The translations under genes and the position numbers were made by a program. A model generated the notes under the pieces. That model saw nothing but the letters and a program-made list of their open reading frames with translations. It ran no database searches and was not told where the DNA came from. This document shows positions 1,306-42,800 of a stretch of 62,415 bases of DNA, piece after piece (the stretch's first letter is position 1; every line of letters starts with the position of its first letter). The DNA comes from a virus (lineage: Duplodnaviria > Caudoviricetes): positions 1 to 62,415 of the IMG/VR virus record IMGVR_UViG_3300042314_001286; one strand, given 5' to 3'.

Positions 1306-1578
1306 TTATTTTTTTAAGGTTTTATAGTTAAATAGTAAAGATTCAATAGTTAAAAATATATTAGTTAAATCGTCCCAATTATTATGCTTCACGTCGTCAA
1401 AATCTTCTAGTATTACGACGCTTCTAGTGTGGTACAAATCCGGCTCCCATGCATCTACCATATTTTTAGATAGCTTCGCTTCCATTTGCCTAACTTCTTT
1501 TTTCAGTAGCTTGATTCCGGCGTTTTGGTTTTCAATGTACTTTTGTAATTCCTCAATTTTGTTTTGTAAATTTTCCAT
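1306..1578 (-). CDS. hypothetical coiled-coil early protein (likely start MENLQNK)
   Basis: N-terminus resembles that of 992..1300 (MENLQQL). Confidence 0.65.
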   Translation of the reverse strand: MENLQNKIEELQKYIENQNAGIKLLKKEVRQMEAKLSKNMVDAWEPDLYHTRSVVILEDFDDVKHNNWDDLTNIFLTIESLLFNYKTLKK

Positions 1579-1622
1579 TTTATAAAAGTTTAGCGCCGGG
1601 AATTTCACCCGGCTTGATTAGA

Positions 1623-2363: not shown

Positions 2364-2407
2364 GATTGATTTGATTGATTGATTTGATTAAATATTGATT
2401 GATTGAA

Positions 2408-2593
2408 TTATTTTTTAATTAATAAACTCCCGGAAAAAATAAATGATAATAAAACCGGAAGCGTGAAGACTAAAATAGCTACTAAATTTTCCGTCGGATA
2501 AGTTTCTGTATTCAATTGATATCCGATAACAGATAAAGCAAGTAAAGACGTAATAAATAAAATCGTTTGGAATACTGTTTGAAGCGTTTTCAT
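2408..2593 (-). CDS. small two-TM membrane protein, first gene of leftward early unit
   Basis: Two hydrophobic segments; likely start MKTLQT. Confidence 0.55.
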   Translation of the reverse strand: MKTLQTVFQTILFITSLLALSVIGYQLNTETYPTENLVAILVFTLPVLLSFIFSGSLLIKK

Positions 2594-3110
2594 ATTGTTT
2601 TGTTTAATTGTGTGCCACAAAGTAAAGCAATAGGTTTATACTATGCAAGCATTTTAATACTAAAAATTATTTAACGGTATGTTTTTTTTATGCAATGTTT
2701 GTTTAAATAATGTATGGCGCATTTTACTTTTTTAAATATTTTAGAAAGGGAAGAAGATTTGAGGCGGATAATAGTCTTCGCGCCTTGCCTTGCTTTGCAT
2801 AATATTTTCGCGAAGTCAAACCGAAATAGGGTTTTCCTTTTTGGTTTATGGTGCCAAAAAAAATAGTGTTTATCGATCATTATATTTTTCAGGAAATTAT
2901 GTTTAAACGTACCTATTTTAGCCGGCTTGAATTTTGGAATTTGAATTTAAGAAAGGAAAGGTACCCGGTTTGAAATTTGCGTTTCACTATCTGTAGCGCC
3001 GGGGCCGGCAGAAAATCTATAACCTTCTTTACACAACCGCACGCAACTTTTTTTTGTTAATTAGGGTTTTTTAGTATAACTTTAGGTTGATAAACCAGAC
3101 AATAACAAAT

Positions 3111-3752
3111 ATGCTTAGTTACGACATCAGTCAGGCGTCGCCTAATACAGTCATTGTAGAGGTAGGTAAATCCCTCGAGGATACAGTTACTTTTGGAGGA
3201 ATGACTCTTCACATAGATCCCGAATTCAACCCCACCCATCACGCTAGAATATACGGTAGAGTGGTGGCAATACCTGCGGGAAATATATACGACTTTAACG
3301 GCAATCAGATCCACGAAGAGGTTCGTGTTGGGGACTTAGTATACTTTCATTATTTAACGACGTCAGATGAGAGCAATTGCATTTATGGGAATTATTATAG
3401 AGTCCCTTATTGTTGGATTTTTTGTACTATCAGGGATGGCTTTATTCTACCTGTTGGCGGGTGGACTTTATGTGATCAGGTTGTTGAAGAAAAATTTGAT
3501 GAGGTTGAAGTTGATGGTTCAAAAATTAGTGCGGTACTAAGTGAATCTGGATTGGTGGTAGGTTTGAACAAAAAATCTTCAGTAAAATATGCAACATTAG
3601 CTCATATTGGGAAGCCATTTGTTGGAGTTGATGAGTTAGGAATAGAATCTGGGGACAAAATTATCCTTGCCAAAAATTCCAACTTTGTCAATAAGATTGA
3701 AGGAATCGATTATTATACGGTAAGGCAAGAGGATATACTTGGCAAAGTATAG
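3111..3752 (+). CDS. tandem GroES-like co-chaperonin
   Basis: GRVVAIP...EVRVGDLVYFHY and SESGLVV...GIESGDKIIL...YYTVRQEDILGKV both resemble Cpn10 folds; likely start MLSYD. Confidence 0.7.
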   Translation: MLSYDISQASPNTVIVEVGKSLEDTVTFGGMTLHIDPEFNPTHHARIYGRVVAIPAGNIYDFNGNQIHEEVRVGDLVYFHYLTTSDESNCIYGNYYRVPYCWIFCTIRDGFILPVGGWTLCDQVVEEKFDEVEVDGSKISAVLSESGLVVGLNKKSSVKYATLAHIGKPFVGVDELGIESGDKIILAKNSNFVNKIEGIDYYTVRQEDILGKV

Positions 3753-12381: not shown

Positions 12382-12389
12382 TATCTTTG
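12382..12389 (+). promoter_or_regulatory. Bacteroidota -7 promoter box TATCTTTG
   Basis: TAnnTTTG upstream of ATG 12414. Confidence 0.55.
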
Positions 12390-12413
12390 AGGCAAAACTA
12401 TTCTCGCTTTAAA

Positions 12414-15400
12414 ATGGCAGTTAACTTTAGCGTTCAATTCAGGATAAACGAAAAAACTCAATCACGAGTTTTACGCCTTACAGATACTTCAACTGGGTTT
12501 ACTTTTGGAAAAGGTAACTTCTCGGTTACATTCTCAGATGGTTCTACTCGAATCAAGACTGACTTTTCTACGCCTGATATTTCTGCTTCTGGCGGATTTG
12601 TAGATATCAATCTGGTGACAGATAGTGCAGGAGTAGTTAATACAGGCACCTACAAGGTAGACTATGTTGCGCTAGACACTTCTTTAGCAGGATATTCTTT
12701 ATCAAGAACTTTCGACTTTAACTGGGTTAAGCCAACTAAGAATATTGTTAGCGGAACTGATGTTTTAGTGCCTGAAGTTAAATTCTTAGATAACACATCT
12801 TACTCGCCGGCAGGCAGCTTTACTGGAACATTAACCCGTACTTTTAGTACATTAATGCCTAGTAATACGCCACAATCTGGCACAAACGTTATTGGTGTAG
12901 GCAACTTAATTGACCCAATATTTGCGGGAAAATACTACGAAGGGATATATACTGCCAAGTCAGATGTTTCTGTTAGCTACACACATACAAGCAACTCTTG
13001 GTTAACAGTATTTTATACAGACTTACTGCAAGAGATTATTGACGTTAGACGCGCCCCTACGCAGACGCAGTTAATTGGGTTTATGAATACTTATCACGCT
13101 ATTATTACGGCGTATGAAGATAATAATGATACTCAATTTAATTTATTAAATGAGCAATACGACTTAGTAGTTTCATTATACTCGCATCTTATTGCAAGAT
13201 ATGAATCTGGCACATTAGATGGTTCTGAGCCATTGCTCAGTCAGTTAATTGACATTTTGCGTCCATATAATACACATACTTACACGGCAGTTCCTTTGGC
13301 TCCGTTTACTTTAGATGCAATCGGTACAGCTGGCTTTTTATTATCAGATGGCACTATTACGGATAACTTTTTCCTAGGGGAAACATTAAGATTTGCATCT
13401 AATAGTACAGCATTAACTCCTGTTGTTACGAATAACTCTGTTTCGTTTAATCCTACTTTTGGGGTTACACCTAACACGTTTGCTTCTGGTAGCGATAGTC
13501 GTTTCCATGACCCTGTAACATTAGGTATTAATCAAAACGGCTTATCTCTTTCTACGCAGCAATTATCATTGGCCTTAGCTACGACAAGTACTGCTGGTTC
13601 AATGAGCCCTGTTGATAAAGCTAAATTAGATACTGTTGCTCCCGGCGCACAAATTGGTACAGTTACAAGTATTGGCATTAGTATGCCATCTGCGTTTACT
13701 GTTAGCAACTCTCCAGTAGCAACTTCTGGAACAATTGCAATTACAGCAAATGGTTTGTCTACGGAATTTATTCGAGGAGATGGCGCTACAGGGAACTTTA
13801 ATTCAGTTGCTAGAACAGCTATTAGCTTAACTACTACTGGAACGGCTGGTGCTGCTACATATAATTCTACTACGGGTGTTTTAAATATTCCTCAATATGT
13901 AGGCGGCGTCACAAGTTTTAATACTAGAACAGGTGCTATTACACTTACTTCTGGCGATGTAACTACCGCTTTAACATTTACCCCTTATAATGCGACTAAT
14001 CCTAGTAATTTTATTGCATTAACAGCTTTATCCGCAGGAACAGGTATATCTTATAACAACACTACAGGTGTTATTACAAATACAATTACTCAGTACACAG
14101 ATGCGTTAGCAAGACTTGCGATATCATTAACTACTACTGGAGTATCTGGTGCGGCCACATATAATTCCACTACAGGGGTTTTAAATATACCTATATACGA
14201 AGGTGGAGTTACAAGTTTTAACACTCGCACGGGCGCTATTGTATTAACATCAGGTGACGTTACAGGGGCGTTAGGATTTACCCCTTACAACGCAACTAAC
14301 CCTGCTGGATACACTACAAATGTAGGGACTGTTACATCTGTTGGTGGAACAGGAACCGTTAGTGGATTAACTTTAACAGGGACAGTAACTACCTCAGGAG
14401 ACTTAACGCTAGGAGGCACTTTATCTTTAACGTCAGGCAATATTACAAGCGGATTAGGGTTCACACCTGAAGACGCAAATAATAAGGGCGTAGCGGGCGG
14501 TTATGCAAGCCTAGATGGCAGCGGATTGGTTCCGTCTACACAACTTCCTTCTTATGTAGATGATGTATTAGAATATACTAACTTAGCTGGCTTTCCTGCA
14601 ACAGGTGCTACTGGAAAAATTTACGTTGCATTAGATAATAATAAAATATATCGTTGGAGTGGTTCTGCTTACATAGAAGTTTCTCCTACAGTTGGGACTA
14701 TCTGGGGTGGCATTACGGGTACGCTTGCTAATCAAACTGACTTGCAGTCGGCTTTAGATGCAAAGCAAGATGATATTACATTAACTACTACAGGAACAAG
14801 TGGAGCTGCTACATTTATTGGCAACACATTAAATATCCCTCAGTATCAAGGCGGAGTTACAAGCTTTAATACTAGAACTGGTGCAATTACGTTGTCATCT
14901 ACAGATATTACAGATGCTTTAACATTCACTCCTTACAACGCAACTAACCCTAGCGCATATATTGCTTTAACAGCCCTAAGCGCAGGAACTGGAATATCTT
15001 ACAATAATACTACTGGTGTAATAAGCTCTACGATTACTCAATATACAGACGCGTTATCAAGAGCTGCAATAAGTTTAACTACTACAGGAACATCTGGATC
15101 GGCAACTTATAATTCAAGCACAGGTGTACTAAATATTCCTTCTTATGAAGGTGGGGTTGCAAGCTTTAATACTAGGACAGGAGCGGTTACGCTTACTAGC
15201 TCTGATGTTACTACTGCGTTAACATTTACTCCTTATAATGCTACTAACCCTAGCAACTATATTGCTTTATCAGCTCTGTCTGCTTCCGCTCCATTGTCAT
15301 ATAACAATACTACAGGAGCATTTAGTATAGCACAAGCTAACGGATCAACTAACGGATTCTTATCTTCTACTGATTGGACAACCTTTAATAGCAAGCAAAA

Positions 15401-17579
15401 TGCTTTGACTTTAGGTAATGTTAGCGAGGTTTCAAGTAATGTTTTAATGTTCCCTGACGGAGGTACAGGAAAGACTATTGGAAACTTAACTATTCAAGTT
15501 GTACAAGCAGGAGCCTCTACTAATGGTTATTTAAGTTCTACAGATTGGACTACGTTTAATAATAAACAAGGTGCAATAACATTAACAACGACAGGAACAA
15601 CTGGTGCTGCAACGCTTACTGGAAACACATTGAACATTCCTGAATATCAAGGAGGTGTTTCAAGCTTTAATACCAGAACTGGCGCAATTACACTTACTAG
15701 CTCAGATGTTACAACAGCTTTAGGCTACACTCCTGTTACGAATGCTCGGACGTTAACAATTAACGGTACAACATACGACTTAACAGCAAATAGAAGCTGG
15801 ACGGTTGCAGGTTCTATGCCTTCTGGCGGAACTGCTGGACAGATTCTTTCTAAGATAGATGCTACTGATTACAATACTATCTGGATTGACAATTACGCTA
15901 GTCAATTAAAGCATGAAGTTAAATTAGGCGCTACGATTACTAAAGGCAAGGCAGTTTATGTTTCAAGTGCTGATGGTACAAATATGATTGTCTTAGCGGC
16001 ATCTAATGCTTCAGAGTCAACATCTTCTAAGACACTTGGATTATTAGAAACGGGTGGAGTTTTAAATGATCTTGTAAAGGTTGTTACTGAAGGATTACTT
16101 GCTGGATTAGATACTTCTACGGCAACTGCTGGAGACCCAGTTTGGTTAGGAACAAATGGAGACTTAATCTTTGGTTTAGCAAATAAGCCTGTAGCACCTG
16201 CGCATCTAGTATTCATTGGTATTGTAACTCGCGTACAATCTAATAACGGAGAAATATTTGTTAAGGTACAGAATGGCTTTGAGCTAAATGAGATTCACGA
16301 TGTATTAGTTGGCTCTTATGGAACTAAAGATGTATTGTATCGTGATACAACTACTAACCTTTGGAAGAATGGTTCTGTCGCATCTGTACTTGGATTCACT
16401 CCTTATGATGCAGCTAATCCTAGTAATTATATTGCTCTAACAGCTCTATCTTCTACGGCTACTGGTTTAACATACACCAACACAACAGGTGTGTTTAGCT
16501 TGACTTCTGGATATGTTATCCCGACAACAAGTTCTGCTACAAATTGGGATACTGCTTATACAAATAGAATTACAAGTTTAACTACTACGGGAAGTTCAGG
16601 TGCTGCGACATTAACAAGCAACACATTAAACATCCCAACGTATACACTTGCTGGATTAGGCGGTGTTCCAACGTCTCGCACGATTACGATTAACGGAACA
16701 GCGTATGACTTGTCAGCTGACAGAAGTTGGACTATTTCTGCGGCCACCGGGACAGTAACTTCTGTAAGCGGTACTGGAACAGTATCTGGTTTGACGCTAA
16801 GTGGAACAGTTACTTCGAGTGGATCGTTGACGTTGGGTGGCACCCTATCTCTGACTTCTGGAAATGTAACCGCAGCTTTAGGCTTTACTCCTGTAACTCT
16901 TTCTTCTGCAATTACAGGGTATTCTGTTGGTAGTAATACAGCGTTAGCTGCTACTGATTCTATATTAACAGCTTTTAATAAGATTCAGGGGCAAATAAAT
17001 GCTAGACTGACATCTTATAGTGAAACTAGTACGTTTGCTAACGTTACAGCCAGAGGAGCGACAAGTAATGGCAGTATTACTGTTAATGGCTATCTTACAG
17101 TAAGAGGTGCAGGTTCATCTAGCTCAATATATATGTCAGATGACGATGAGGGGCAACGCGAAATGCATTGTAATTCACATCGTATTGGATTCCTAACACA
17201 AGGTGGTGGATGGGGTTCATACTGTAATGATGATGGTAGCTGGGTTTCTGTAAGTGATATTACGGCTTACTCAGATGCACGAACCAAAGAAAACGTAATT
17301 ACCGTTAATAATGCTTTAGATAAAGTGTTGCAACTTCGCGGAGTTTACTATAATCGTATCGGAGAAGCCAAAACTTCTCTAGGGGTTATTGCTCAGGAAA
17401 TACAAGAAGTTGTCCCAGAAATAGTTAAAGAACAGAACGACGGAATACTTAGTGTCGCCTACGGCAATATGGCAGGTTTGTTTATAGAAGCATTTAAAGA
17501 ACAACAAGCTCAGATTGCATCTCAAGGTGCACAAATTACAGAATTGCTAGAAATAGTAAAAACGTTAAAAGGAGTATAA
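12414..17579 (+). CDS. long tail fibre 1 with repeated shaft modules and C-terminal intramolecular chaperone (peptidase S74-like)
   Basis: Repeats of LTTTGTSGAAT...LNIPxYxGGVTSFNTRTGAITLT; C-terminal SDARTKENV...LGVIAQE...AYG; likely start MAVNF. Confidence 0.88.
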   Translation: MAVNFSVQFRINEKTQSRVLRLTDTSTGFTFGKGNFSVTFSDGSTRIKTDFSTPDISASGGFVDINLVTDSAGVVNTGTYKVDYVALDTSLAGYSLSRTFDFNWVKPTKNIVSGTDVLVPEVKFLDNTSYSPAGSFTGTLTRTFSTLMPSNTPQSGTNVIGVGNLIDPIFAGKYYEGIYTAKSDVSVSYTHTSNSWLTVFYTDLLQEIIDVRRAPTQTQLIGFMNTYHAIITAYEDNNDTQFNLLNEQYDLVVSLYSHLIARYESGTLDGSEPLLSQLIDILRPYNTHTYTAVPLAPFTLDAIGTAGFLLSDGTITDNFFLGETLRFASNSTALTPVVTNNSVSFNPTFGVTPNTFASGSDSRFHDPVTLGINQNGLSLSTQQLSLALATTSTAGSMSPVDKAKLDTVAPGAQIGTVTSIGISMPSAFTVSNSPVATSGTIAITANGLSTEFIRGDGATGNFNSVARTAISLTTTGTAGAATYNSTTGVLNIPQYVGGVTSFNTRTGAITLTSGDVTTALTFTPYNATNPSNFIALTALSAGTGISYNNTTGVITNTITQYTDALARLAISLTTTGVSGAATYNSTTGVLNIPIYEGGVTSFNTRTGAIVLTSGDVTGALGFTPYNATNPAGYTTNVGTVTSVGGTGTVSGLTLTGTVTTSGDLTLGGTLSLTSGNITSGLGFTPEDANNKGVAGGYASLDGSGLVPSTQLPSYVDDVLEYTNLAGFPATGATGKIYVALDNNKIYRWSGSAYIEVSPTVGTIWGGITGTLANQTDLQSALDAKQDDITLTTTGTSGAATFIGNTLNIPQYQGGVTSFNTRTGAITLSSTDITDALTFTPYNATNPSAYIALTALSAGTGISYNNTTGVISSTITQYTDALSRAAISLTTTGTSGSATYNSSTGVLNIPSYEGGVASFNTRTGAVTLTSSDVTTALTFTPYNATNPSNYIALSALSASAPLSYNNTTGAFSIAQANGSTNGFLSSTDWTTFNSKQNALTLGNVSEVSSNVLMFPDGGTGKTIGNLTIQVVQAGASTNGYLSSTDWTTFNNKQGAITLTTTGTTGAATLTGNTLNIPEYQGGVSSFNTRTGAITLTSSDVTTALGYTPVTNARTLTINGTTYDLTANRSWTVAGSMPSGGTAGQILSKIDATDYNTIWIDNYASQLKHEVKLGATITKGKAVYVSSADGTNMIVLAASNASESTSSKTLGLLETGGVLNDLVKVVTEGLLAGLDTSTATAGDPVWLGTNGDLIFGLANKPVAPAHLVFIGIVTRVQSNNGEIFVKVQNGFELNEIHDVLVGSYGTKDVLYRDTTTNLWKNGSVASVLGFTPYDAANPSNYIALTALSSTATGLTYTNTTGVFSLTSGYVIPTTSSATNWDTAYTNRITSLTTTGSSGAATLTSNTLNIPTYTLAGLGGVPTSRTITINGTAYDLSADRSWTISAATGTVTSVSGTGTVSGLTLSGTVTSSGSLTLGGTLSLTSGNVTAALGFTPVTLSSAITGYSVGSNTALAATDSILTAFNKIQGQINARLTSYSETSTFANVTARGATSNGSITVNGYLTVRGAGSSSSIYMSDDDEGQREMHCNSHRIGFLTQGGGWGSYCNDDGSWVSVSDITAYSDARTKENVITVNNALDKVLQLRGVYYNRIGEAKTSLGVIAQEIQEVVPEIVKEQNDGILSVAYGNMAGLFIEAFKEQQAQIASQGAQITELLEIVKTLKGV

Positions 17580-17580: not shown

Positions 17581-18555
17581 ATGCCATTACAGACTTCAGG
17601 TGCTATAACTATTAACCAAATTCGAATCGAACTAAGCTCGGGTTCTTATTCCCTTCGTACATTAAGTGCGGCAGCAGGAAAAGGTACGCCCGATTCCATG
17701 AGTGAATTCTACGGATTTGCCAACACAATGACAATCTCTTTACTTGTACAAGCTGCTGGAGGAGGCGGTGGTGGCGGTTGGCCCGGAGGAGGAGGAGGAG
17801 GAGGCGCTGGCGCCCATTATCACGCTTCTTCTTACACAATAAACAGAGGAACATCTTACGGTATTTCTGTAGGAGGAGGTGGGGCTACTATTGGTTCGGC
17901 TTGGGTTGATGATGATTACAGAGGTGCAAATGGGGGTAATTCAACTTTTGGTGGAATTACAATGTATGGTGGCGGAGGAGGTGGCTCAGGAGAAGGTAGT
18001 TTTGCTGCTTCAAATTTTGGGTATGCTTCATCTGGAGGATGTGGTGGAGGTGGAGGAATTAATCAAAACCAAGGAAATAATGGTGGTGCAGCAGTACCTA
18101 ATGGAGGAAATGGAAGAAACGGAGGACACGCAACTACCCAACAAGGAGGCGGTGGAGGTGGAGGAACCGGACTAGAGGGAGCTCCTTCAGACTTCGAAAA
18201 AGGAGGTTGGGGTGGAAATGGTAGACAAATTGGTGAATTTGGAAACGAGTATTATGGAGGCGGTGGAGCTGGAGGAACTTGGACGTGGGCCTATTCTAAT
18301 ACAGGAGGAGTTGGCGGCGGTGGTGCTGGTGGAGGAGGAGAAACTATTGCCTCTCAACCGGGTGTCGCAGGATACGGCGGTGGCGGTGGCGGTATTGGAC
18401 ACGTTGGAGGATGTTGCCGTAACGGTAATGGAGGCTCTGGTTCGGTACGGATTAGATATGCTGGAGGGCAAGTGCTTTCAGGAGGTAATAGTGTTTACGG
18501 TAGCGGAGGGTATACATATCACATTTTTACAAGTTCAGGAACTTTATATACATAA
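17581..18555 (+). CDS. glycine-rich fibre-tip adhesin (gp38-like)
   Basis: Follows an S74-bearing fibre; polyglycine tracts separated by variable loops; MPLQTSGAITINQIRIEL...MSEFYG N-terminus. Confidence 0.7.
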   Translation: MPLQTSGAITINQIRIELSSGSYSLRTLSAAAGKGTPDSMSEFYGFANTMTISLLVQAAGGGGGGGWPGGGGGGGAGAHYHASSYTINRGTSYGISVGGGGATIGSAWVDDDYRGANGGNSTFGGITMYGGGGGGSGEGSFAASNFGYASSGGCGGGGGINQNQGNNGGAAVPNGGNGRNGGHATTQQGGGGGGGTGLEGAPSDFEKGGWGGNGRQIGEFGNEYYGGGGAGGTWTWAYSNTGGVGGGGAGGGGETIASQPGVAGYGGGGGGIGHVGGCCRNGNGGSGSVRIRYAGGQVLSGGNSVYGSGGYTYHIFTSSGTLYT

Positions 18556-18996: not shown

Positions 18997-20559
18997 ATGT
19001 TACCTTTTAAATATACAGTAGTAGGATCTGGTACTGCCGGATGGCTTACCGCACTATACCTACAACACTACTATCCATTTGCTCGCATAGAAGTAATTGC
19101 GAGCTCGGATATTGGTATACTTGGAGCAGGAGAAGGTACAACCCCAAACGTATTAGCGGCATTAAGAAAACTTGGTATACCATTAGAAGGATTAGTTAGA
19201 CACGCTTCTGCTACCATGAAAAATGGTATTAAATTTACTAATTGGAACGGGGATGATACTTCTTACTTTCATGGATTTGCTAATCAAAACAGTTTTAATC
19301 CATTTAAGTTTAAGAACGATACAGGAAACGGATTGCCTATTTTAGCACTTGAGCAAATCTTTGACGGAAATAATTTAGACGCTATCTTAATAGACGCACA
19401 CCTAGCAGAAACTAATCGTGTCAAATACTTTCCAAACCAAGGGTTACAAAGCAAGATGGATAATGCGTTCAATCATTTTGAACAGATGGGCGCCGACTCT
19501 ATTCATTTCAACGCAGCTCAATTGGCTGAATATCTAAAAAGTGTTGCTATAGAAAGAGAGGTAAAATATATTGATCAAGAAGTGACTGGATTTGAGCAAG
19601 ACGATCAGGGATACATTACTGGAGTTGTCACAAAAGATCAGACACACTATAGTAACTTTGTGTTCGACTGTAGCGGTTTTCACAGGCTTATCATAGGTAA
19701 ACTGTATCAATCCGAGTGGGTTTCATACAAAGAGCATTTGCCTATGAAAAAAGCAATTGGCTTTTTTATGGATCAAGATGATTATGATGAGCTCCCTTCT
19801 TATACAGAATCTATTGCCATGGACTACGGATGGGCGTGGAAAATTCCAGTACAAGATCGATTCGGGTGTGGATATGTGTATGACTCGGATTATATTACAG
19901 AAGAACAAGCAAAAGAAGAAATCATTCAAAAGTTTGGCGAAAATGTTAAGTTCGGCAAGAGCTTCTCGTTTGAGGCGGGGCACTATAAAACTCCGTGGGT
20001 TAAAAATTGTATTGCTATCGGATTAGCATCTGGATTTATTGAGCCTTTAGAAGCAACTTCTATAATGATCCAAGTAATTGCCTTGGATTCGTATCTAGAT
20101 AACAATTTGGGAATTATTAAAAAAGATCCTTTTTATATTAATCGCTACAACCAGCGTATGAGTGAGGTGAACTCAGAAAACATGGAGTTTATTTACACAC
20201 ATTACTTAACACAGAGAAAAGACACTCCTTTTTGGGAGGAATTTAGAGAAAAGAATAAAACTCCTCAGCGGGTAGAAGAATTATTAGAAGAGTGTAAGCA
20301 CACTATGCCTGATGATATGTTTTTGACTTCTAGGCGAAAGGAGGTACTGTATACTATTCCAAGTTGGTATTCTATTATGGCAGGGATTAAGTTATTTAAC
20401 CCAACTATTGCTAGAGAATTAATAGACGCCGCAACCTCAGACTTCCGCAGAGAAGACTTGATGTTACACAGAACAAAGTTTAGGGTAAACTTATTATTAA
20501 ACAAGGACACATTCATAAAGCACCGGGTGTTTTTAGATTATTTAGCTGCTATAGGATGA
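18997..20559 (+). CDS. flavin-dependent (tryptophan-type) halogenase
   Basis: GSGTAG FAD motif, GAGEGT, ATMKNGI (catalytic Lys position), DCSGF, WAWKIP, FIEPLEATSI. Confidence 0.92.
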   Translation: MLPFKYTVVGSGTAGWLTALYLQHYYPFARIEVIASSDIGILGAGEGTTPNVLAALRKLGIPLEGLVRHASATMKNGIKFTNWNGDDTSYFHGFANQNSFNPFKFKNDTGNGLPILALEQIFDGNNLDAILIDAHLAETNRVKYFPNQGLQSKMDNAFNHFEQMGADSIHFNAAQLAEYLKSVAIEREVKYIDQEVTGFEQDDQGYITGVVTKDQTHYSNFVFDCSGFHRLIIGKLYQSEWVSYKEHLPMKKAIGFFMDQDDYDELPSYTESIAMDYGWAWKIPVQDRFGCGYVYDSDYITEEQAKEEIIQKFGENVKFGKSFSFEAGHYKTPWVKNCIAIGLASGFIEPLEATSIMIQVIALDSYLDNNLGIIKKDPFYINRYNQRMSEVNSENMEFIYTHYLTQRKDTPFWEEFREKNKTPQRVEELLEECKHTMPDDMFLTSRRKEVLYTIPSWYSIMAGIKLFNPTIARELIDAATSDFRREDLMLHRTKFRVNLLLNKDTFIKHRVFLDYLAAIG

Positions 20560-21491: not shown

Positions 21492-23780
21492 ATGGCATTA
21501 CCATCTAATGTAGTGGGATTAATGGGTATTGATAATAGCGGAAACGTTGTTACAATACCAGCTGATTCTTTCACTACTACGCAAACTTCCGTTCCTAATG
21601 TTGCTGCCGTAGCACCTGTTCAGCCGAGCAGAGCTGCTGCAACGAATATTGTTACGAATACTACAACAGAAACGGTTGCGTTAGAGATTGATGCTGATGA
21701 AAACTATCTTGTTAAGGTTAACTCTACAAGAGATAACTTTGATAACTCTATTCTATACGAAAGCAATAAAAAGATAGGCTTAAATACAAAGTCTCCCAAG
21801 TTTGCTTTTGATGTGAATCTTAATAGCATCAACATTAGTAATCTAGCATCTAGCTTTGGATACAAGTTAAATGGCAGAAACTTTGCTTATACAATAGGCG
21901 ATTCAACATCAACTAAATATGGGAATATCTATTTAGGAGACGCAATTCTACAAACTATTGTTGTGCCTTATTTAGTTATTACTAAAACTGCAATAACGCC
22001 CACTCCTTCCATTATCTACAAGCGTCCGCTATATGTTGATGATACTGGATTAGTAGATGCTTATGCTGCATTTACGGAGGGATCAATCATATTTAGTTCA
22101 GAGACTCAGTTAACACAGAATAACGCTAAGCTATTTTGGGACAATACTAATTTTAGATTAGGGGTTATGACTAATGCTCCCGCTTACTCATTTGATGTAA
22201 ACGGAACCGCTAGAATACAGACATCTTTAATTACGCCAACTATTGGCAATACATTAGGCGTTGCGGCAAATAACACTTGGACGTTTGCATCTAACGTTAA
22301 TGTCCCATTAATGCCAGTAGATGCGACTCACGCTGCCTCAAAGCAGTATGTAGATAATGTTGCATTAACAGGATTAAAAATTGGAGCAGCAGTTAAGACA
22401 GTTGCTATATCAAACGTAGGATTAAGCGGGCTTGCTACTATTAGTGGATATACTCCTGTAGCAGGCGATAGAATATTAGTTATTGGGCAGTCTACCCAAA
22501 CAGAAAATGGTGTTTACGATGCAGATTCTGGAGGGTGGACTCGTTCGACAGATTCAGATTCCGACATGGAATTGCGCGGATATCAATATCTAATCACCGC
22601 GGGAACTTATAACAATGCAAGATACGGCAATACAAACCAATCTGTTATCACTATTGGTACAACCGCTATTACATATCAAACTATTTCAGCTAGTGAATCA
22701 GACCCAATTTTTACGGCATCTCCTTCATTTGGAATCACAACTACAAATATTTCTAATTGGACAACTGCTTATAATCGCTCTATTGTATCTTCTGCTTTTT
22801 CGGGAACAGATACGCAGACGTTAACTTTAACAAAGCAAGACGGCGGAACTTTAACTAGCTCATTTACTTTCCCTGTAACGAGTGTTTTTGGGCGAACTGG
22901 AGTAATTACACTAACTAGCGGAGATGTTACGTCAGCGCTAGGATATACCCCATACAACGGAGCGACAAACTCTAACGGATATATAAGTTCAATCAATTCA
23001 GGTGCAGTTACCGCGGCCCTAGGATACACTCCTGTATCAACGACTAGAACAATAACGATTAATGGTTTAGCACAAGACTTGTCTCAAGATAGAACTTGGA
23101 CAATTGCCGCTGGTATAACATCCTTTAACGGAGCTACTGGCGCTATTACTTATGGATACTCTCAGATTGTAGGCGCAGGTGGATTGAACTTTGTGCCAGC
23201 AAATTCTGCGACAACTATTACCATTAACGGCACAGCACGTCCTTTGTCGGCGAATGCATCCTTTACTACAGTATCTACTATCTCGACAACTTCAGGAAAC
23301 GGCATATCGTCAGTAGTAACAAATGCTTCCACTACCCCTAATATAGCAATCGGAGCAACAACAGATAATGTTCAATTTGGCTCAATTAAAGTAGGAACAT
23401 TTGCAACGGCTCCTCCTAACACAAGTGGTAACATTTATGCTTCTGGAACAATTACGGCTGTTGGGGATATCATTGGATATAGCACATCTGATGAAAGATT
23501 AAAGGACAACATAGCTGTTATTGACAATGCTATTGATAAGATATCTAAACTTCGTGGCGTAACATTTAGCTGGACAGAGAATGCTGGAGAAATGTATGGC
23601 TTAGAAGGAGATGATATGGGATTAATTGCGCAAGAAGTACAAAGTGTTGCACCTTTAGCTGTACAAGAAAGAGAATCTGGCTATCTTGCAGTTCGTTATG
23701 AAAAAATAATTGGATTGCTAGTTGCTGGTATGAATGAGCAAGAGATAAGAATTAAGGAGTTAGAAAATAAATTGAAGTAA
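21492..23780 (+). CDS. tail fibre 2 with C-terminal peptidase S74-like chaperone
   Basis: HAASKQYVD, GDRILVIGQSTQTENGVY, shaft repeats shared with fibre 1; SDERLKDNI...GLIAQEV...VRYEK. Confidence 0.88.
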   Translation: MALPSNVVGLMGIDNSGNVVTIPADSFTTTQTSVPNVAAVAPVQPSRAAATNIVTNTTTETVALEIDADENYLVKVNSTRDNFDNSILYESNKKIGLNTKSPKFAFDVNLNSINISNLASSFGYKLNGRNFAYTIGDSTSTKYGNIYLGDAILQTIVVPYLVITKTAITPTPSIIYKRPLYVDDTGLVDAYAAFTEGSIIFSSETQLTQNNAKLFWDNTNFRLGVMTNAPAYSFDVNGTARIQTSLITPTIGNTLGVAANNTWTFASNVNVPLMPVDATHAASKQYVDNVALTGLKIGAAVKTVAISNVGLSGLATISGYTPVAGDRILVIGQSTQTENGVYDADSGGWTRSTDSDSDMELRGYQYLITAGTYNNARYGNTNQSVITIGTTAITYQTISASESDPIFTASPSFGITTTNISNWTTAYNRSIVSSAFSGTDTQTLTLTKQDGGTLTSSFTFPVTSVFGRTGVITLTSGDVTSALGYTPYNGATNSNGYISSINSGAVTAALGYTPVSTTRTITINGLAQDLSQDRTWTIAAGITSFNGATGAITYGYSQIVGAGGLNFVPANSATTITINGTARPLSANASFTTVSTISTTSGNGISSVVTNASTTPNIAIGATTDNVQFGSIKVGTFATAPPNTSGNIYASGTITAVGDIIGYSTSDERLKDNIAVIDNAIDKISKLRGVTFSWTENAGEMYGLEGDDMGLIAQEVQSVAPLAVQERESGYLAVRYEKIIGLLVAGMNEQEIRIKELENKLK

Positions 23781-23781: not shown

Positions 23782-24693
23782 ATGGCAATTTCTCCAGCTG
23801 GTTCTCCTATATCATTGAATACCATTAGGGCTGAATTAGGCATATTGGCTGAATCTAACTTGTCTTTAAATACTGCTGAAGATGGGCTTTATGTCCCAAT
23901 TAATCCGTGTAGTACATTTAAACCTGCTGTACCGAATCCAGCCGCAATAAGCGAATGGTATGGGTACAACCATACTCAGCCGTGTGTTTCTTACAGATAT
24001 AATTCTGTTAGCTGTGAAACTAGTACAGGTATATGCAATGTGCCTTTTAGCCCTAGTCAAGCAAACTCAAACGTCGTAATGAAACCTAATTTTGTATTTT
24101 ATCCAATACCAGACGGGTTCCCAAATACTTGGTTAATTGAAAATGCAGAATTATTCCCTAATGCAAGATTTAGGGTTGGAGTATCTTATGGTTCTTCATT
24201 TATCAATGAAGTAGTATATGATTATACGGGCCCTTATGTCCCTTGGAATGGAATTGCTAATGTTGGCTCGCTTTCTGGGCAAAAAGTTCCTGCGTCTATA
24301 ATTACCGGAGCTATTGCATATTATTTTAGAATTGATTATAATGATGGAAGTGGAAGAATATTAGGCGACTTAAGCATTAATACGCCATCCTTTCTTTATA
24401 TATTTTACCCTACATTTATTCCTGTTGGGCCGGGGCCAGATCCCGGTGGATATTACGATCCATCAAGGTGGACTTCTCCGTTTTCTTATAGTGCAACAAG
24501 TCAAGCTTTAGCTTGCTCTGGGACTTCTTATGAGAATTTTACATTTAATTATCCATTATCAAGCTCTAGTATATTAATGTATCCAGATGAATCTTTAGTA
24601 ACAGGTAAGGCAGGTTATTATAAGATAAGAAGTAATTCAACTTGGATATACATTAATAATGATGGACTAGTAGTATCAAGAGGAATTTGCTAA
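23782..24693 (+). CDS. putative fibre-tip adhesin with internal T9SS type-B (CHU_C-like) domain
   Basis: N-terminus homologous to 17581..18555; aa ~101-200 PNFVFYPIPDGFPNTWLIENAELFPNA...WNG...YYFRIDYNDG. Confidence 0.65.
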   Translation: MAISPAGSPISLNTIRAELGILAESNLSLNTAEDGLYVPINPCSTFKPAVPNPAAISEWYGYNHTQPCVSYRYNSVSCETSTGICNVPFSPSQANSNVVMKPNFVFYPIPDGFPNTWLIENAELFPNARFRVGVSYGSSFINEVVYDYTGPYVPWNGIANVGSLSGQKVPASIITGAIAYYFRIDYNDGSGRILGDLSINTPSFLYIFYPTFIPVGPGPDPGGYYDPSRWTSPFSYSATSQALACSGTSYENFTFNYPLSSSSILMYPDESLVTGKAGYYKIRSNSTWIYINNDGLVVSRGIC

Positions 24694-24694: not shown

Positions 24695-25984
24695 ATGACT
24701 TGTATATCAAAATATATTTATTCAAACTGTACAACACTAGCTGTTGGGTGTACGCTGTATTCTGACAATTCTCTGCAAACAAAATTGGGTGCTGGATTTC
24801 ATAAGATACCTGTTGGTACGGGGCAAAAAACATTTACAACAAACTCAAACGGAGTAATAACAGCGGAGTCAGTTTGCTCTTGGGCTTCTAATATACAGCC
24901 GTATGCTCCATTATTTACTTCTAATAAAAATGACTGCGTAGGCGGAACTTCTTGTACAGCCGTCGGCAGTACGGTAACACTTAATGACGGAACTCCATCA
25001 AATGATTATTCTCAAAACGTAGGATATGTTTCATTTATATCTCAAGAAGATGCAAATACGCAAGCTCAATTGCTTTCTGAAGCTGCTTTCAACGCAAATA
25101 AACAAGCACAAGTAAACCTACGAGGAAACTGTATTTATACATATACTGCTGGCACAGGAACTTATAGCGCAAACTTTACTAAGAATAACTGTGCATCAAA
25201 TTGCTACGCAAATGGAACCGTAAACTATTCTATAACAAAAACAGGATATTCAGCATCATCTACGGTATCTTGTACTCAAGCAAGTATTGACGCAAACACA
25301 GCTGCTTATAACGCGGCAATTGCAGAAGTTAATGCTGGCGGACAAGCTTATGCTAACGCAAATGGTTCTTGCTGTTGCTGGGTTGCAGACCCTGCTTGTT
25401 ATCTTTGCTATCGCTATGAGGCAAGAGAGATAAACACTTGTACTGGATTGTACAGAAATGATTATCCAACCGATAGCGAATCTTGTTTGTGCGGACAAGG
25501 CTGCAAAGGAACTAACTACGATTATTATGAATGCGTTGGGACATTCGGGCAAGACAAGTTAAAAAAAGAAAGATTCAACTGCCCGCCATATAACTTCACG
25601 GGACAAGAAATTCTTGAAACTTGCGGATGTACAAGTAATACGCCAGACGTTAGAGCATTAGAACCATTAGAGCGAACTTGCATTGATTGTGAATATTGGT
25701 TTATACTTAGAGACTTTGCTGTATGCTCTCCTACTGCTGGGCATTATTTTGCAAAAGGTGTGGATTACGGATTAAATAAGCCATCTACAGCTGCCTGTCC
25801 TAGCCCAAATTATAGTAATTATATTGGGATAAGATGTATTAACTACGCTAATAGTGGGCCAGCAAACTATAATGTATTTGAAAACACAAGTTCGTGCGGA
25901 TTTAGATATCAATTAAATACTATAGACGGAACAGGTAATGTATTTTTAGGCAATGATGCCGGAACATCTTCATATTGTCCATAA
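24695..25984 (+). CDS. cysteine-rich protein with two DUF5977-like repeats
   Basis: FTSNKNDC...SFISQEDAN...QAQVNLRGNC and FTKNNC...GQAYANANGSC; very high Cys content. Confidence 0.65.
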   Translation: MTCISKYIYSNCTTLAVGCTLYSDNSLQTKLGAGFHKIPVGTGQKTFTTNSNGVITAESVCSWASNIQPYAPLFTSNKNDCVGGTSCTAVGSTVTLNDGTPSNDYSQNVGYVSFISQEDANTQAQLLSEAAFNANKQAQVNLRGNCIYTYTAGTGTYSANFTKNNCASNCYANGTVNYSITKTGYSASSTVSCTQASIDANTAAYNAAIAEVNAGGQAYANANGSCCCWVADPACYLCYRYEAREINTCTGLYRNDYPTDSESCLCGQGCKGTNYDYYECVGTFGQDKLKKERFNCPPYNFTGQEILETCGCTSNTPDVRALEPLERTCIDCEYWFILRDFAVCSPTAGHYFAKGVDYGLNKPSTAACPSPNYSNYIGIRCINYANSGPANYNVFENTSSCGFRYQLNTIDGTGNVFLGNDAGTSSYCP

Positions 25985-36886: not shown

Positions 36887-39800
36887 ATGGCTGAATTAGA
36901 TGCAACACAAATGCCTGAGGATATCATTCCTCAGGAAGTATTAGTTGATACACCAGAAGTAGAGGCAGTCGATCAAGAGGAGCAAGAGAAACCTAAATCT
37001 GGTGGTAAAATTCAAATGGCTACCGAGGAAGCAAAAAAAGAATTAGCAAAAAAGTATATTCCTAGGAAAGTTGTAGTGTCTAATCAGGGGAAAGTAGAAG
37101 CCCCTGCTGTAACTGTTGTAGAAAAAGCAACAACTGAAACGCCTAAACCTGTAGCTCAAAAAGTTAAGGAAACTAAGCAAGGAGATTTGCTTAAGCCGGA
37201 TACTCAAGACGAACAAGCTGATTATAAGAAGAAGTATGAAGAGAAGGAAGTAGCTGCATTAGTTACAGGAAAGAAACCTTCTGCTCCAGTTGACGTTAAA
37301 TTTGAGTTAGATAGATTCTTAGGAGGTAGCCCAAGTTCAATTAACTGGGATGCATACGAGAAGTCTAAACAAGAAGAGATTCGTCGGGCCGCAGCAATTG
37401 CGGTTCAAAACGACGTAGATCCAAATTCGGATCCATCTGGCGTATTAACATTCCTTAGTAGAATAACTCCTAATGCAATCAAGTCTGGAGTTGTTAAAGC
37501 TGAATCAGAGTTAGCTTCATTTGCTGGACAGATATTAAATGAGTTTGAAAAAGCAAAACAAAAACCCGGAGGATTTGCTAAATCTCTTGGTGTTGAACCT
37601 GAGGCTCCTAAACCTTTGGCTCAAGGAGAAATTCCTACATATAAGAATCTATTCGAAATAGGCGCTAAGCTTGCTAAAAGAAGCGAAGACTATATGTTTG
37701 CCGCTGAGATAAATTCTGGTATACAAGAAAAAAACGTAGGGAAGAATGCATCCGATCTACTCTTTTCTTCTAATCCGGGTGACACTTGGGATGGATTAAC
37801 TAAACTTGGTTTATCTGTTACGCAGCAACTTCCTCAGCTTATTGGACTTGCAGCAACATCTAGCAATCCAGCATTAATGAATGCGTTAATGTTTAGTACA
37901 GCAACAGGAGCAGCACTAACAGAAGAATATAAGAAAGATAAAGATATTTCAGATGTTGACGCTATGCAATCTTGGGGAAAAGGACTTGCTTCAACATTGA
38001 TTGAAAAGCTATATTTAGGAGACATTAGGGCTCTTGCTTCTGCTGGCGGGAAAATTGCAAACTTGCAAATGGATGGCGCTAAAAAAGTTTTAAAAGACTT
38101 CTTAGATAAAAATGGGAAAGAGAAACTTAGGGATGAAATTAAAAGAACATATTTTGCCGCATCGAAAGATATAGTAAGAAATAGTTTTGGTGAAGGTGGC
38201 GAAGAAGTCCTAACCGCTATAACAGATTTTGTCGTAGACAGAACAGAAGATGGCAAATGGGATCAAGAAGAATACGATAAATTATTAAGCAATATTAAAG
38301 AGTCTGCTTTAATTGGATTTGCTACAGGATTTGGAGTTTCAGCTCCTTTAATAAAGGCATCTGTTACGCCATTGACAATGGAGCAGAAGCGTAAGATTGC
38401 TAGTTTCCGTCAGGTAGCTAACGATCCTACAGCAAGCAAAGAGATTCGTGAGTCAGCACAAAAACACGCTGATGATATTATTAAATTTAGCGCAGATCAA
38501 GTTGCCAGAAAGTACACAGTAATGGCCTCTCTTCCTTTAGAAAAGAGAAAGGTAGCTATTGATATTGCTGGCAAAATACAGTCGCTAGAGAATGGCAAAG
38601 CCAAGCTTAAAGACGTAGATGCTGAAGCTGTAATTGATAAAGATATTGACAAGCTAAAGCAAGACTGGAGCAAAGTTATTGTTGGGCACGCAATGGAGAC
38701 AGCGGCGAAAGACGAGGCGGCAAGAGTGGAAGCGGCAAAAACAACAGAAGTTACAGCGGAAACTACAACTCCTGAAGTTAAATTATTTAATGATACTCCA
38801 GAAGGAAGAGCATTGATTTCAAATTATAATGCAACATTAAAAGCATTAAACGATAAGGCTAAGATATTAATACATTCCAATGCTTTGGCAATGCAAGCGG
38901 CTTTAATTAAAGGTGGTATGAATCCATCTTTGGCAACAGCTTATGCTAATGGCGGATCTCATAATGGAGTCAACCATTCTGCGTCTTCTGGTTTATTAGC
39001 AACAGAAAATGGCAATCCTGTTATTCACGTTAATGCAGAAACTGCAAACGATTTAACAATTCCTCACGAAATAACTCACGTTGCACTAGCTGACTTAGCA
39101 AAAAACAATCCAGAACAATTTATTGTAATGCGAGATAAATTGCTAAAAGCAATGAGTTCTAGTAATTCAAAGCCATTAGTAGAATTTGCATCACAGTATG
39201 GTAAAGAGGATACAGCAGCAGATGCAGAACAATTGCGCGCTGAAGAGTTTATTACTCAGATGGTTGCAGAGTTGGCTTCTGAAGGAAAGAAAATTGATAT
39301 AAATACATTGCAAGCAATCGCTCAAGCAATCAAGAAATTCTTATTAGATGTTGCTTCTAAGCTTAATAGCCCAATGTTAACTACATTGGTTAACGATGCT
39401 TTTGCAAATACTACATCTAAGCAAGAGCTAGTAGACTTCTTTAATAAGTTTTCAGAAGCATTAGCATCAGGAAGATCTTTGCCTACAAAGACTCCTATGT
39501 TTGATGTGGGAATAAGCCCAACTCGCGCGGCAGAGACTATGTCTAATTATGTTAGACAATCAATTCTTGGCGAAAAAGGTGCGGCTGCATTGGATGAATA
39601 CTACAACGTTAATACTCGTTTAAATAATCTATATCGTGCTAAATCTTTAAGCTTGTTAGGATTAACCCCTGCCGAAGTTAAAATTGCTACAGGGTGGGAA
39701 TTAAGCAAGGTTGATGATATGTGGAGATACGAAATCGAACCTTCGGATATGACTATCCCTCTTGGACTATTATCTAAAGCATTTACTACTGGCGAATTTG

Positions 39801-42800
39801 TCGTTAACATAAACGGCAAATATGTGGTAGATATGCAAAAAGAAAGGGAGTTAAACCCTAATCTTAGAGAAGAAGATTATAAAAAACGTAAAACTTCTTT
39901 TGGGGTAACTATGCCAATTAAACAAATACTTGGCGAATATAATTTATACGATAAAGCTTATCCAGATTTATTTAATAAGATATCTGTTGAATTTAAGAAT
40001 GATCCTAAAGACGACGAGTTTGCTGGTATGTATAATGAAAATACAAAGACTATAACAATTAACCTTGCTAATACTTCAGCTAAGAATATTAAAAGTCTTT
40101 TGATTCATGAAATGCAGCACGCTATACAAGTTGCTGAAGGATTTCCTGTTGGAGCTAATCCGAATGTATTCTTAGGTAACAAAGAGGAATTAAAAGCGGA
40201 AGCTCAAAAAGCTTATGATGCATACAAGGGCTTAGATGCAGAGTCTAAGAAATTGTACCACGAGAAAATTAATATTTCTCCATCATCTATTCCAGAGTTT
40301 AGTCCCTATTTAATAGCTGAAAATGATAGGACTGTTGAAGAGTTAAAGATTGCAGAAGAACAACTAGGTAAACTAGAAGATGCAAATCCTCTTTTTGATG
40401 CAAAGCCATTAATTGATCTAATTAAATCAAAGAGGTTTATATTAGAGAATGGAATTAATACTAAGGCTTATGAAATGAGCGCCGGCGAAGTAGAGGCTAG
40501 AACAGCTCAAGAAAGAGCAGGTATGACTGAAGAGCAGAGAAAGGGTAGCTTGATCTCTGACAATCAAAAGATAGCTCCTGAAGATCAGATTATTATAAGA
40601 AATAGAGTAATTGAAGGTAAGAAGCAGTTTGAAAAACTAGTTGAAGCTGCCGCACAACAAAGTGGGGTTAAGCAACAGATTGCTCCAAATGGTAAGCCCT
40701 CTAAGCTAACTGCTGCCCAATACGAGATGGTAAGAACTCCTGAGTTCAAAGCTTGGTTTGGTGACTGGGAAAATGATCCAGAGAATGCATCTAAGATGGT
40801 TGATGAAAACGGTGAGCCTAGAGTTTATTATCACGGAACATCGAAGGACAAAGATTTTACAGCATTTAAAATGCCAGCTAATGGAGCTTGGTTTACAGAT
40901 TCTCCATCGGTGGCAGGAGATTACGCAATACAAAATGATAGTCAAACATCTAAGTATGATTGGAGTTCAGGAAAGTATATTGACGTAAACACTTCTCCTA
41001 GAGTATTGCCTGTATTTTTAAATATAAAAAATCCGGTAGATTACAATACTACAAACATTCTAACTCCTGAGGACAGAAGTAAGTTGTTTGCCGCTAGAAA
41101 TTACAAAGCTGTTCAAAAAGAACTTTTCAATAAGATTATTTATAGCAAAACACTCGAGGAAAGGCAAGCTGGCTTGGGTGTAGATGGTTTATATTTTGAG
41201 CCGGGAGTAGTTGTTGCGTTAAACAATCCGTCTCAGATTAAATCTGCTACAGGTAATAAAGGGACATTTAATCCTGAGAAATCAGATATTCGTCAGCAAA
41301 TTTTTGGCAAACCAAAAGTTGAGCCGGGAACATCTGCTGCAAAAGAAGCTCAAAAGAAAGCTGAATCTACAACACTTAAAGAAGCTTGGCAAGCAGTTCA
41401 AAAAGAAGCTACTGAGCGTAACGTAAATGTTGCAGATGCATTAAAAGATGCTGATATGTTGCAGACATTCTACAATATGTATAATAAGGCTGGAGCGACA
41501 CCATTTGCTACAAGAATGTTTGCTGATGCTCACGCTGATATATATAATAAGCTAAGCAAAAAAGAGAAGTTATTCTTAGACGATATCATCTTGTTGCAAC
41601 GTACAATTGCTATTGACGACAACTTTGACAATAGAAAAGCCGCTGGCGAGAAAGTTGAGCGTCCGCTACATACATCTTTCAAAGATTATGCTACTAAGAA
41701 AGAGGTTCCTTTGTCTAAAGAAGAAGCTGTAAAGCAATTAGAATTCTTAAGAGACAAATACTTTAGCAATGAAGATTATGCAAAATTATTAGATCGCTCA
41801 AATAAATACTTTAAAGCGTTCTCTGATATATTAAAATACAAACTTGACAATGGCTTAATTGATCAAGGCGAGTATGATATGTACAAGAATTACAACTATC
41901 AGCCTCGTAAATTCTTGAAATTCTTATTAGGGGACACTCCTCAGTCGGCATTCAATACTCGCGGGGTACAAATTACTAAGGAGGAAATTGCAAAGATTGG
42001 CGAAGGGGATACTGGTTATATGATGACTGACTCTGAGAAGCTTCTTAAGATGGGATTTGTTTCTGCGGTAAATAAAGTATTCTCTAATAGGGCTATCTCT
42101 TGGATGGCTGAAGAGATGCAAGGCAAAAACCTGTCTTGGCTGAAGCCTGCTAATGTAGATAAATATGCTGATGGTACAGAAAAATTAAATCCAGACGGTT
42201 CTCCAAAGTTACAGGAGCCTAATGCAGGATTTAGAAATATGTATTATAAGAAAGATGGTAAGCGTTATGCAGTTCAATTAAAAGAATCTTTTGCGCGCGA
42301 ATTCCAAGATGAGGAAATGTGGGATACAAGAAATTGGTTATATCGCACATCAGTAAAGGCACTAGGTGCTAATATTACTTCTGCTATGGCAGTAGGTATC
42401 AACCCTGCATTTATCATCTCCAATATTCCAATTGATATCCTGTCTCAGGTTTATTACAATAACTTGTATTCTAGCAAGTTTGGTGTTATGGGGCAAATGG
42501 GCAAAGGTTTTAGCGGAGCAATTATTAACTCATTGAAGATTGCAAAAGCAAAAACAGGTAAAGGTGACAACTCTGATATATTAAACTTAATTAAAGAGTA
42601 CGGAGAAGCAGGTGGACTAATGAACACGCTTGCTTATGAGACAAATTTCTTAGGAAAGGTTGGGGATGCATTAGGTGCCCTTGGAAATGTTTCTGAGATG
42701 GCATCTAAGTTAACTGCTTACGAAAATAAGCGTAACGACTTAGTTAAAGAGTTTAAAAAGAAAAACGGCTCAGAACCAACCGGAGTAGAGTTTGAAAAGA

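Follow-up and report, generated by a model that had tools for sequence, protein, structure and literature searches.

A phage protein encoded beside a tail fibre contains an internal homologue of a type IX secretion sorting domain and is a candidate modular fibre adhesin

The window, meaning the whole stretch of DNA analysed here, is IMG/VR record IMGVR_UViG_3300042314_001286. This 62,415 bp record is a complete virus genome with direct terminal repeats. Our subject is one of its genes, the open reading frame (ORF) 23782..24693, which follows the second of two tail fibre genes and encodes a protein of 303 amino acids (aa). The protein has an N-terminal adaptor module, a middle domain and a small C-terminal domain. 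An earlier reading made from the letters of the DNA alone, hereafter the sequence-only reading, had likened the middle of the protein to the type-B C-terminal domain (CTD) of cargo handled by the Bacteroidota type IX secretion system (T9SS). It proposed that the phage displays a captured secretion signal at a fibre tip. The ORF is present as quoted in that reading, and the segment singled out there, 24082..24381, corresponds to aa 101–200. Matches to PHROG families identify a terminase at 4606 and a portal at 6619, in addition to the two tail fibre genes. For the portal, 86 of 87 matching phage records are named after Flavobacterium, Cellulophaga, Tenacibaculum or Maribacter, with 26–29% identity among the matches listed. 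On this evidence the window phage is a distant relative of flavobacterial podoviruses. Given these portal matches, the host very probably carries a T9SS.

Scanned by itself, the window protein resembles known families weakly. The Pfam model CHU_C (PF13585) aligned with aa 103–188 (profile positions 5–74 of 86) at E=0.026, with 15.1 bits against a cut-off of 27. In a six-frame search of the phage's own genome, CHU_C scored 17.3 bits (E=2.1e-4). An NCBIfam scan of the window protein alone gave no match, TIGR04131 included, and a PHROGs scan of the 303-aa protein returned no family. These values could be taken to mean that the CHU_C-like order of residues arose by chance, without homology. Relatives of the protein argue otherwise. 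There are 22 homologues, of which 15 are homologous over the domain (14 full-length proteins and a 195-aa fragment, P0015), at 39–100% identity. For several, a PF13585 call had been precomputed or JGI had assigned the name 'gliding motility-associated-like protein'. When the 15 were scanned singly, with limits of E<=0.01 for Pfam and E<=0.1 for NCBIfam, 11 matched CHU_C (best E=7.6e-11) and 11 matched TIGR04131 (best E=4e-8). Hence, comparison with the two models gives firm matches across the family and a marginal one for the window copy taken singly. The family alignment pairs GMSPNGDGINDTWxIxN of a sister clade with FYPIPDGFPNTWLIEN of the window clade.

Profile searches in both directions gave the same result. 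A profile built from three phage domains matched 347 proteins at E<=1e-3 among 1.84 billion representative proteins. The best 150 of these 347 comprised five phage-family representatives, one SprB-repeat-like protein and 144 others, nearly all of them cargo of cellular type. The SprB-repeat-like protein (P0042) matched in seven partial stretches and was left out of the count of 144 as a repeat artefact. Among the 144, the match lay within 20 residues of the C-terminus in 138 (median 8) and 42 were at least 1,000 aa long. By sequence, this is the layout of classic type-B cargo. Conversely, a hidden Markov model (HMM) of 73 cellular C-terminal CTDs was compared with the 488 ORFs of the window. 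ORF 23782..24693 was the sole significant match (E=4.1e-15, 50.3 bits), aligned over profile positions 11–102 of 103 and about aa 94–200 of the protein; the next window match had E=0.11. All 18 family members matched the same HMM, at 44.7–72.2 bits. The 73 cellular CTDs had been picked as matches to the phage profile, so this HMM is biased towards phage-like CTDs. No second CHU_C-like domain was found in the window by six-frame, C-terminal HMM or cellular-CTD HMM searches.

The predicted structure points the same way. Modelled alone with AlphaFold2, the domain reached a mean predicted local distance difference test (pLDDT) score of 91.0 and a predicted template modelling score of 0.85. The model has a sheet of about five strands after a loop-rich N-terminal part, which fits the description of predicted type-B CTDs in the accessible part of PMC12618676. 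Against BFVD, the full-length model matched A0A6J5L8Z9 and A0A6J5NJX2 at probability 0.99–1.00, with a root-mean-square deviation (rmsd) of 3.7–3.8 Å over 112–120 columns, and A0A7S9STS8 at probability 0.94. All three are phage proteins auto-named 'Gliding motility-associated, C-terminal domain'. The unnamed viral protein A0A516MB73 superposed with an rmsd of 2.7 Å over 90 columns. A fold search of the PDB with the full-length and domain-only models returned nothing at E<=1e-3, and the weak matches to the domain were generic Ig-like and other beta-sandwich folds. A PDB sequence-profile search with the 303-aa protein found nothing relevant.

Because family-level matches, reciprocal profile matches and fold matches agree, we accept the middle domain (aa ~95–205) as a complete internal homologue of the T9SS type-B CTD, of which this copy falls below the curated Pfam cut-off. 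The likeness to CHU_C/TIGR04131 domains of SprB-type cargo extends over the whole domain of about 90 residues and takes in the W-I-N, PWxG and YYxI blocks as well as the last strand. The same matches refute chance resemblance, to which we assign almost no probability. The observation in the sequence-only reading is thus confirmed. The capture of the host domain is old, since the closest cellular match to the phage domain had only E=8.7e-9, compared with 1e-18 to 6e-60 within the family.

Several features separate the phage domain from the type-B CTDs of cells. As the sequence-only reading had it, the domain is internal: about 98–100 residues follow it in the window protein, and 80–93 in the phage-family representatives. 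Past the usual cellular end, the phage proteins add one strand, a variable linker and a 75-residue domain. The same reading saw no signal peptide. We used a crude test, the highest 10-residue Kyte-Doolittle mean near the N-terminus, and obtained 1.11 for the window protein and 0.19–1.84 for 14 family members, against 1.99–3.47 for 21 PorP/SprF proteins with genuine signal peptides. No match to the PorP/SprF carrier family (PF11751) was found across the complete phage genome, whereas 41 of 80 cellular CTD loci contain a PorP/SprF gene. Two loci of Flavobacteriaceae, from Psychroserpens (L072, 2..4135) and Winogradskyella (L059, 1..4877), show the textbook operon, in which the cargo is a DUF7507/DUF11 adhesin carrying a type-B CTD and its partners are a PorP/SprF carrier and an OmpA protein of PorE-like type. 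The CTDs of these two cargo proteins are among the cellular ones nearest the phage domain (39.9 and 36.8 bits, respectively). The phage copy, by comparison, is encoded in a structural module of lytic type.

Conserved positions of the domain have been altered as well. Cellular CTDs share 37 columns at a conservation of 60% or more; of the majority residues in these columns, the window clade retains 22 and the sister clade 24. The cellular FNRWG block, with R in 81% and G in 99%, is absent from all phage copies, which have an insertion in its place. In the window clade PNGDGxND has become PIPDGFPN; four of the seven conserved positions are changed and the replacements are fixed within the clade. 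The accessible part of Paillat et al. 2025 (PMC12618676) reports that an SprB-CTD reporter was no longer secreted once any one of five conserved type-B motifs had been mutated; FNRWG and PNGDGxND were compared here without a one-to-one match to motifs A–E of that study. The protein lacks a Sec signal and holds the domain internally, a carrier gene is missing from the phage genome, and two conserved motifs have changed. The CTD-like domain therefore cannot act as a sorting signal in the 303-aa protein. We regard it as an exapted domain.

The start of the protein provides a second line of evidence. The adaptor carries the motif M-x-L-P-x-S-G-x-I-S-x-N-x-I-R-x-E-L ... S-E-W/F-Y-G-Y. A five-sequence adaptor profile matched 634 clusters at E<=1e-3, nearly all of them unnamed and mostly 140–400 aa long. 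The CHU_C-like family makes up 14 of the best 120 among these 634. Elsewhere the adaptor is joined to different tails, for example PF13385, FN3, Cys-rich or Thr-rich ones. In scans of the window proteins the adaptor module was covered by no Pfam or PHROG model, and the adaptor alone (aa 1–70) was modelled at pLDDT below 50.

The adaptor is tied to fibre genes. In the window, the stop codon TAA of fibre 2 (23778–23780) and the ATG of ORF 23782..24693 are separated by one nucleotide, exactly as the sequence-only reading described. The junction between fibre 1 and the glycine-rich gene behind it reads TAA-g-ATG, so both junctions have the layout TAA-N-ATG. Hence, each fibre ends in a Peptidase_S74 (S74) domain and is followed after one nucleotide by a gene with the adaptor motif. 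The claim that the glycine-rich protein shares this N-terminal motif stood, being the only other match of the adaptor HMM to the window ORFs (E=1.2e-4, first 28 residues), with the motif encoded by 17581..17664; BLASTP between the N-termini of the two proteins found nothing. We collected 80 viral adaptor loci (L132–L211) and counted the 73 with at least 900 nucleotides (nt) upstream; several are near-identical, and the number of independent events is therefore smaller than 73. In 49 of the 73 the adaptor gene lies directly after an S74-ended ORF (gap of −16 to +45 nt), and in 71 an S74-like domain occurs somewhere in the locus. Judged by gene order, the linkage is far above what chance would give with one or two S74 genes per phage genome. 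It strengthens the view that the 303-aa protein is a fibre accessory. The adaptor seems to be a general means, so far undescribed, by which phages equip their fibres with exchangeable heads.

Both window fibres share the C-terminal S74 chaperone with other phage tail fibres and tailspikes, such as K1F endosialidase and T5 pb1. They differ in that a downstream gene for an adaptor plus head is coupled to the fibre, an arrangement that recurs in the 49 loci. To our knowledge, such a gene is not part of the S74 fibre systems described so far.

Close coupling to a fibre gene could also mark an assembly helper that stays outside the virion. T4 gp38 and Tfa proteins are fibre helpers of this kind, released afterwards. 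On such a scheme the adaptor would bind the nascent fibre, aid its folding or maturation and then let go. The position of the gene one nucleotide behind that of the fibre, the frequency of that position among adaptor loci and the modelled disorder of the isolated adaptor all suit a helper. Yet the fibres already have an intramolecular chaperone of their own, the heads are very diverse and include adhesin-type domains, and divergence is faster in this gene than in the fibre that the helper would serve (47–49% compared with 77% identity, see below). We consider a helper unlikely.

Divergence is concentrated in this gene and towards its 3' end. Across the family, mean pairwise identity drops from 72% in the N-terminus to 55% in the CTD-like domain and 50% in the C-terminal domain. 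Two related phages (L002 and L003) retain the order of fibre 2, the gene under study and the Cys-rich gene behind it. Between these phages and the window, the product of ORF 23782..24693 is 47–49% identical and is the most divergent in the conserved block; fibre 2 is 77% identical, the Cys-rich protein 72–73%, and five or six further genes 58–93%. Structural look-alikes of the C-terminal domain were viral clusters only, with template modelling scores of 0.70–0.79 and no Pfam family over the aligned part. A likeness of this domain to the start of the next gene was considered and rejected; the C-terminal HMM had no other window match below E=0.5.

We observe homology to type-B CTDs, a modular architecture, linkage of the gene to S74 fibres and fast divergence. 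The reading we prefer, and hold to be probable though far from certain, is that the product of ORF 23782..24693 is a modular protein accessory to the second tail fibre, with the gp38 adhesin of T2-type phages as its nearest known analogue. The first ~70 residues would form a conserved adaptor that docks the protein to the fibre, and the fibre's own C-terminal S74 chaperone would be cut off after folding. Cleavage at that stage is the normal fate of C-terminal S74 chaperones. The remainder would be a swappable head, made of the exapted type-B CTD-like beta-sandwich and the small Cys-capped C-terminal domain. Most likely, the CTD-like domain serves as a folded structural or binding module, and it would present, or help to form, the surface that contacts the host.

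The analogy with gp38 is one of organisation. Gp38 consists of an N-terminal fibre-attachment part and a variable receptor-binding part, and is a modular determinant of host range. The 303-aa protein likewise combines a conserved attachment part (72%) with a variable head (50–55%), and varied heads occur on the 634 adaptor clusters. Like gp38, the product of the sister gene at 17581 is glycine-rich. As in the gp38 adhesins of T2/S16-type Straboviridae, so far as the accessible parts of PMC3157838, PMC12032242 and PMC12892980 describe them, the gene for a small protein stands beside a fibre gene. No sequence or family relation to gp38 was found by PHROG, by Pfam (beyond the weak CHU_C match) or by PDB sequence search of the 303-aa protein. 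The window fibres also differ in having an S74 intramolecular chaperone, the head is built from a borrowed host secretion domain and a Cys-capped domain, and attachment to the fibre tip is putative for the 303-aa protein.

A head of this fold might instead bind the surroundings of the cell. Environment binding has been proposed for Ig-like domains on other phages, and the accessible part of PMC13370021 describes epithelium-binding adhesins of phages with Ig-like folds. The weak PDB matches of the middle domain, itself a beta-sandwich, are generic Ig-like and other beta-sandwich folds; it could decorate the virion and attach to mucus, polysaccharide or particles instead of recognising one host receptor. 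However, the linkage of the gene is specifically with fibre genes and not with head genes, and fast divergence with modular head swapping is typical of host-range determinants. Decoration of this sort seems to us decidedly improbable.

Several observations weigh against a fibre-borne adhesin. Genes just after fibre genes often encode assembly chaperones and not parts of the virion. The adaptor gene was not directly behind an S74-ended ORF in 24 of the 73 loci, the likeness to the glycine-rich protein is limited to 28 residues, and a search for longer or fused forms found no fused fibre-head protein, which is weak evidence. The CTD-like domain has family-invariant loops, PWNG and YNDGxGR. These are not expected of a hypervariable receptor-binding surface, and the sequence hints at a conserved partner. 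Cultured phage records (INPHARED) gave no tblastn match to the whole protein, the sister-clade domain or the adaptor. Moreover, we infer that the protein is part of the virion, docks to the fibre and binds a receptor. In neighbouring searches, the glycine-rich protein also had no tblastn match in INPHARED, possibly through the low-complexity filter. A scan of species-representative genome contigs with the family alignment found no relative, and no sign of a prophage or cellular copy.

Type-B CTDs occur on other contigs classed as viral, in a different setting. The sequence-only reading had asked for a survey of phage genomes for the same fusion. An IMG/VR scan for canonical type-B CTDs yielded 48 loci (L084–L131), with the domain C-terminal in all 48 and followed by 0–29 residues. 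Hence, the domain does recur on contigs classed as viral, but the internal, adaptor-linked form is not among these 48. A signal-peptide-like start was seen in 36 of the 47 ORFs with a complete 5' end, and in four further ORFs (L086 type) a short one can be made out by eye. No PorP/SprF gene lay within 5 kb in any of the 48 loci. At the lower end of the size range stands a 107-aa 'mini-cargo' on contigs of 148–294 kb, and at the upper end a 1059-aa protein that carries GEVED and PKD domains. By their sequences, these proteins look like ordinary T9SS cargo, encoded on phages or on host-derived contigs. The adaptor module was found on none of the 48; in L104 an adaptor ORF is the neighbouring gene. 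Seven near-identical loci (L096–L102; 4365..5288, + strand) stand out, encoding a 308-aa protein with no signal peptide and a CHU_C end (E=1.4e-8). The window protein shares its domain with the canonical ORFs and with the auto-named UniProt/BFVD phage proteins, and the fold is the same (probability 0.94–1.00). It differs in that the canonical domains are C-terminal, mostly behind a signal-peptide-like start and free of the adaptor, while that of the window is internal and adaptor-linked. From these comparisons, phages appear to hold the type-B CTD in at least three architectures, of which the internal adaptor-linked one is specific to the window family.

The boldest part of the sequence-only reading concerned the receptor. 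In that proposal the displayed CTD docks in PorP/SprF-type outer-membrane carriers, or in some other surface part of the T9SS or gliding machinery. The accessible parts of PMC11205867 and PMC12618676 state that type-B CTDs bind PorP/SprF carriers that remain on the cell surface. T9SS and gliding mutations are reported in PMC9804748 to give phage resistance in Flavobacterium, and the T9SS cargo proteins SprB and RemA are treated there as presumed receptors of phages. The phage domain fits such a role in being a full-length CTD homologue down to the last strand, and in keeping 22–24 of the 37 conserved cellular columns despite a long separate history. The invariant loops suggest a conserved partner, and the group L096–L102, which ends in a CTD without a signal peptide, shows exaptation to be recurrent.

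Other evidence speaks against mimicry. No phage copy retains FNRWG, and the window clade has a rewritten PNGDGxND, while each of the five type-B motifs was needed for secretion of the SprB-CTD reporter in the accessible part of PMC12618676. The same part describes carriers as barely detectable, and its authors infer that they are stoichiometric with cargo and not recycled; hence few free sites would be open to a phage. Recognition is highly cognate-specific, yet the phage domain has no close cellular donor, and its C-terminus is not free. The dependence of phage sensitivity on the T9SS is explained equally well by loss of secreted surface receptors. We also predicted a complex of the CTD-like domain (aa 95–215) with the mature PorP/SprF protein of L072 (aa 27–310). 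It scored 0.01 against a mark of 0.32; the Psychroserpens carrier was a stand-in and no control pairs were included. This score weighs neither for nor against binding. Mimicry of a carrier ligand is, in our judgement, rather unlikely. We are just as sceptical of its broadest form, in which Bacteroidota phages repeatedly turned the type-B domain into a virion ligand for PorP/SprF carriers or the gliding track, with the adaptor as a general 'click-on' mount for S74-matured fibres. Were it true, it would give a direct molecular reason for the phage resistance of flavobacterial T9SS and gliding mutants.

In the published literature, most subscription journals being outside the search, no paper came to light that deals with phage-encoded type-B CTDs or with a receptor-binding protein that has a T9SS domain. 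The statement in the sequence-only reading that no case had been described can be kept to that extent, but databases already auto-name homologues 'gliding motility-associated-like protein'. The finding is best put as a putative fibre adhesin of modular build that incorporates a known host domain. Few receptors have been established for flavobacterial phages. A fibre-linked protein around an exapted T9SS anchoring domain is a concrete receptor-binding candidate and should express easily. The adaptor module could help in the prediction of host range from metagenomes and in the engineering of receptor-binding proteins. Should the domain prove to be a scaffold only, it would still be a clean host-to-phage domain capture with changed function; if carrier binding were shown, the interest of the finding would rise sharply.

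Table 1. Features of the two fibre modules of the window
Feature	Coordinates	Strand	Evidence
Tail fibre 1, 1730 aa; Peptidase_S74 intramolecular chaperone domain at end (aa 1629–1681)	12387..17579	+	PHROG tail-fibre families, e.g. phrog_5668 E=3.5e-29; PF13884 E=2.4e-13
Glycine-rich accessory protein, 324 aa; short N-terminal adaptor motif	17581..18555	+	PF21722 Gly_rich_2 E=1.1e-7; phrog_2295 E=5.8e-17; adaptor HMM E=1.2e-4 over aa 1–28
Tail fibre 2, 762 aa; Peptidase_S74 intramolecular chaperone domain at end (aa 666–724)	21492..23780	+	PF13884 E=2.4e-15; 27 PHROG families, mostly tail-fibre or other virion-structural
Gene under study, 303 aa; adaptor, type-B-CTD-like domain and small C-terminal domain	23782..24693	+	ORF; 22 homologues; alignment; synteny in L002/L003
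N-terminal adaptor module, aa 1–70; best-conserved part	23782..23991	+	72% mean pairwise identity; 634 clusters
Internal T9SS type-B CTD (CHU_C)-like beta-sandwich, aa 95–212; encloses 24082..24381	24064..24417	+	Profile homology; model; fold matches
Small C-terminal beta domain, aa 228–303; invariant Cys at end; most variable folded part	24463..24693	+	pLDDT 79–94; 50% mean pairwise identity
Cys-rich protein, 429 aa; DUF5977; 1 nt downstream of ORF 23782..24693	24695..25984	+	PF19404 E=1.4e-8; 72–73% identity, syntenic in L002/L003

Features of the fibre region are collected in Table 1. The Cys-rich DUF5977 protein may be a third member of a fibre-tip block. In the related phage L003, the conserved block is preceded by three extra fibre-like genes (1..3288), two of them with S74-like tails. 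This is unlike the window layout and suggests shuffling of fibre modules. Between the two fibre modules of the window lies a gene for a 520-aa FAD-dependent tryptophan halogenase (18997..20559, + strand; PF04820 E=1.1e-97; phrog_2928), an unusual site for an auxiliary enzyme. Further downstream, 36887..44278 (+ strand) encodes a polyvalent protein of 2463 aa with an ART-PolyVal ADP-ribosyltransferase domain (aa 1306–1461, E=2e-19) and an LPD23 domain, which is probably an internal virion protein that is ejected.

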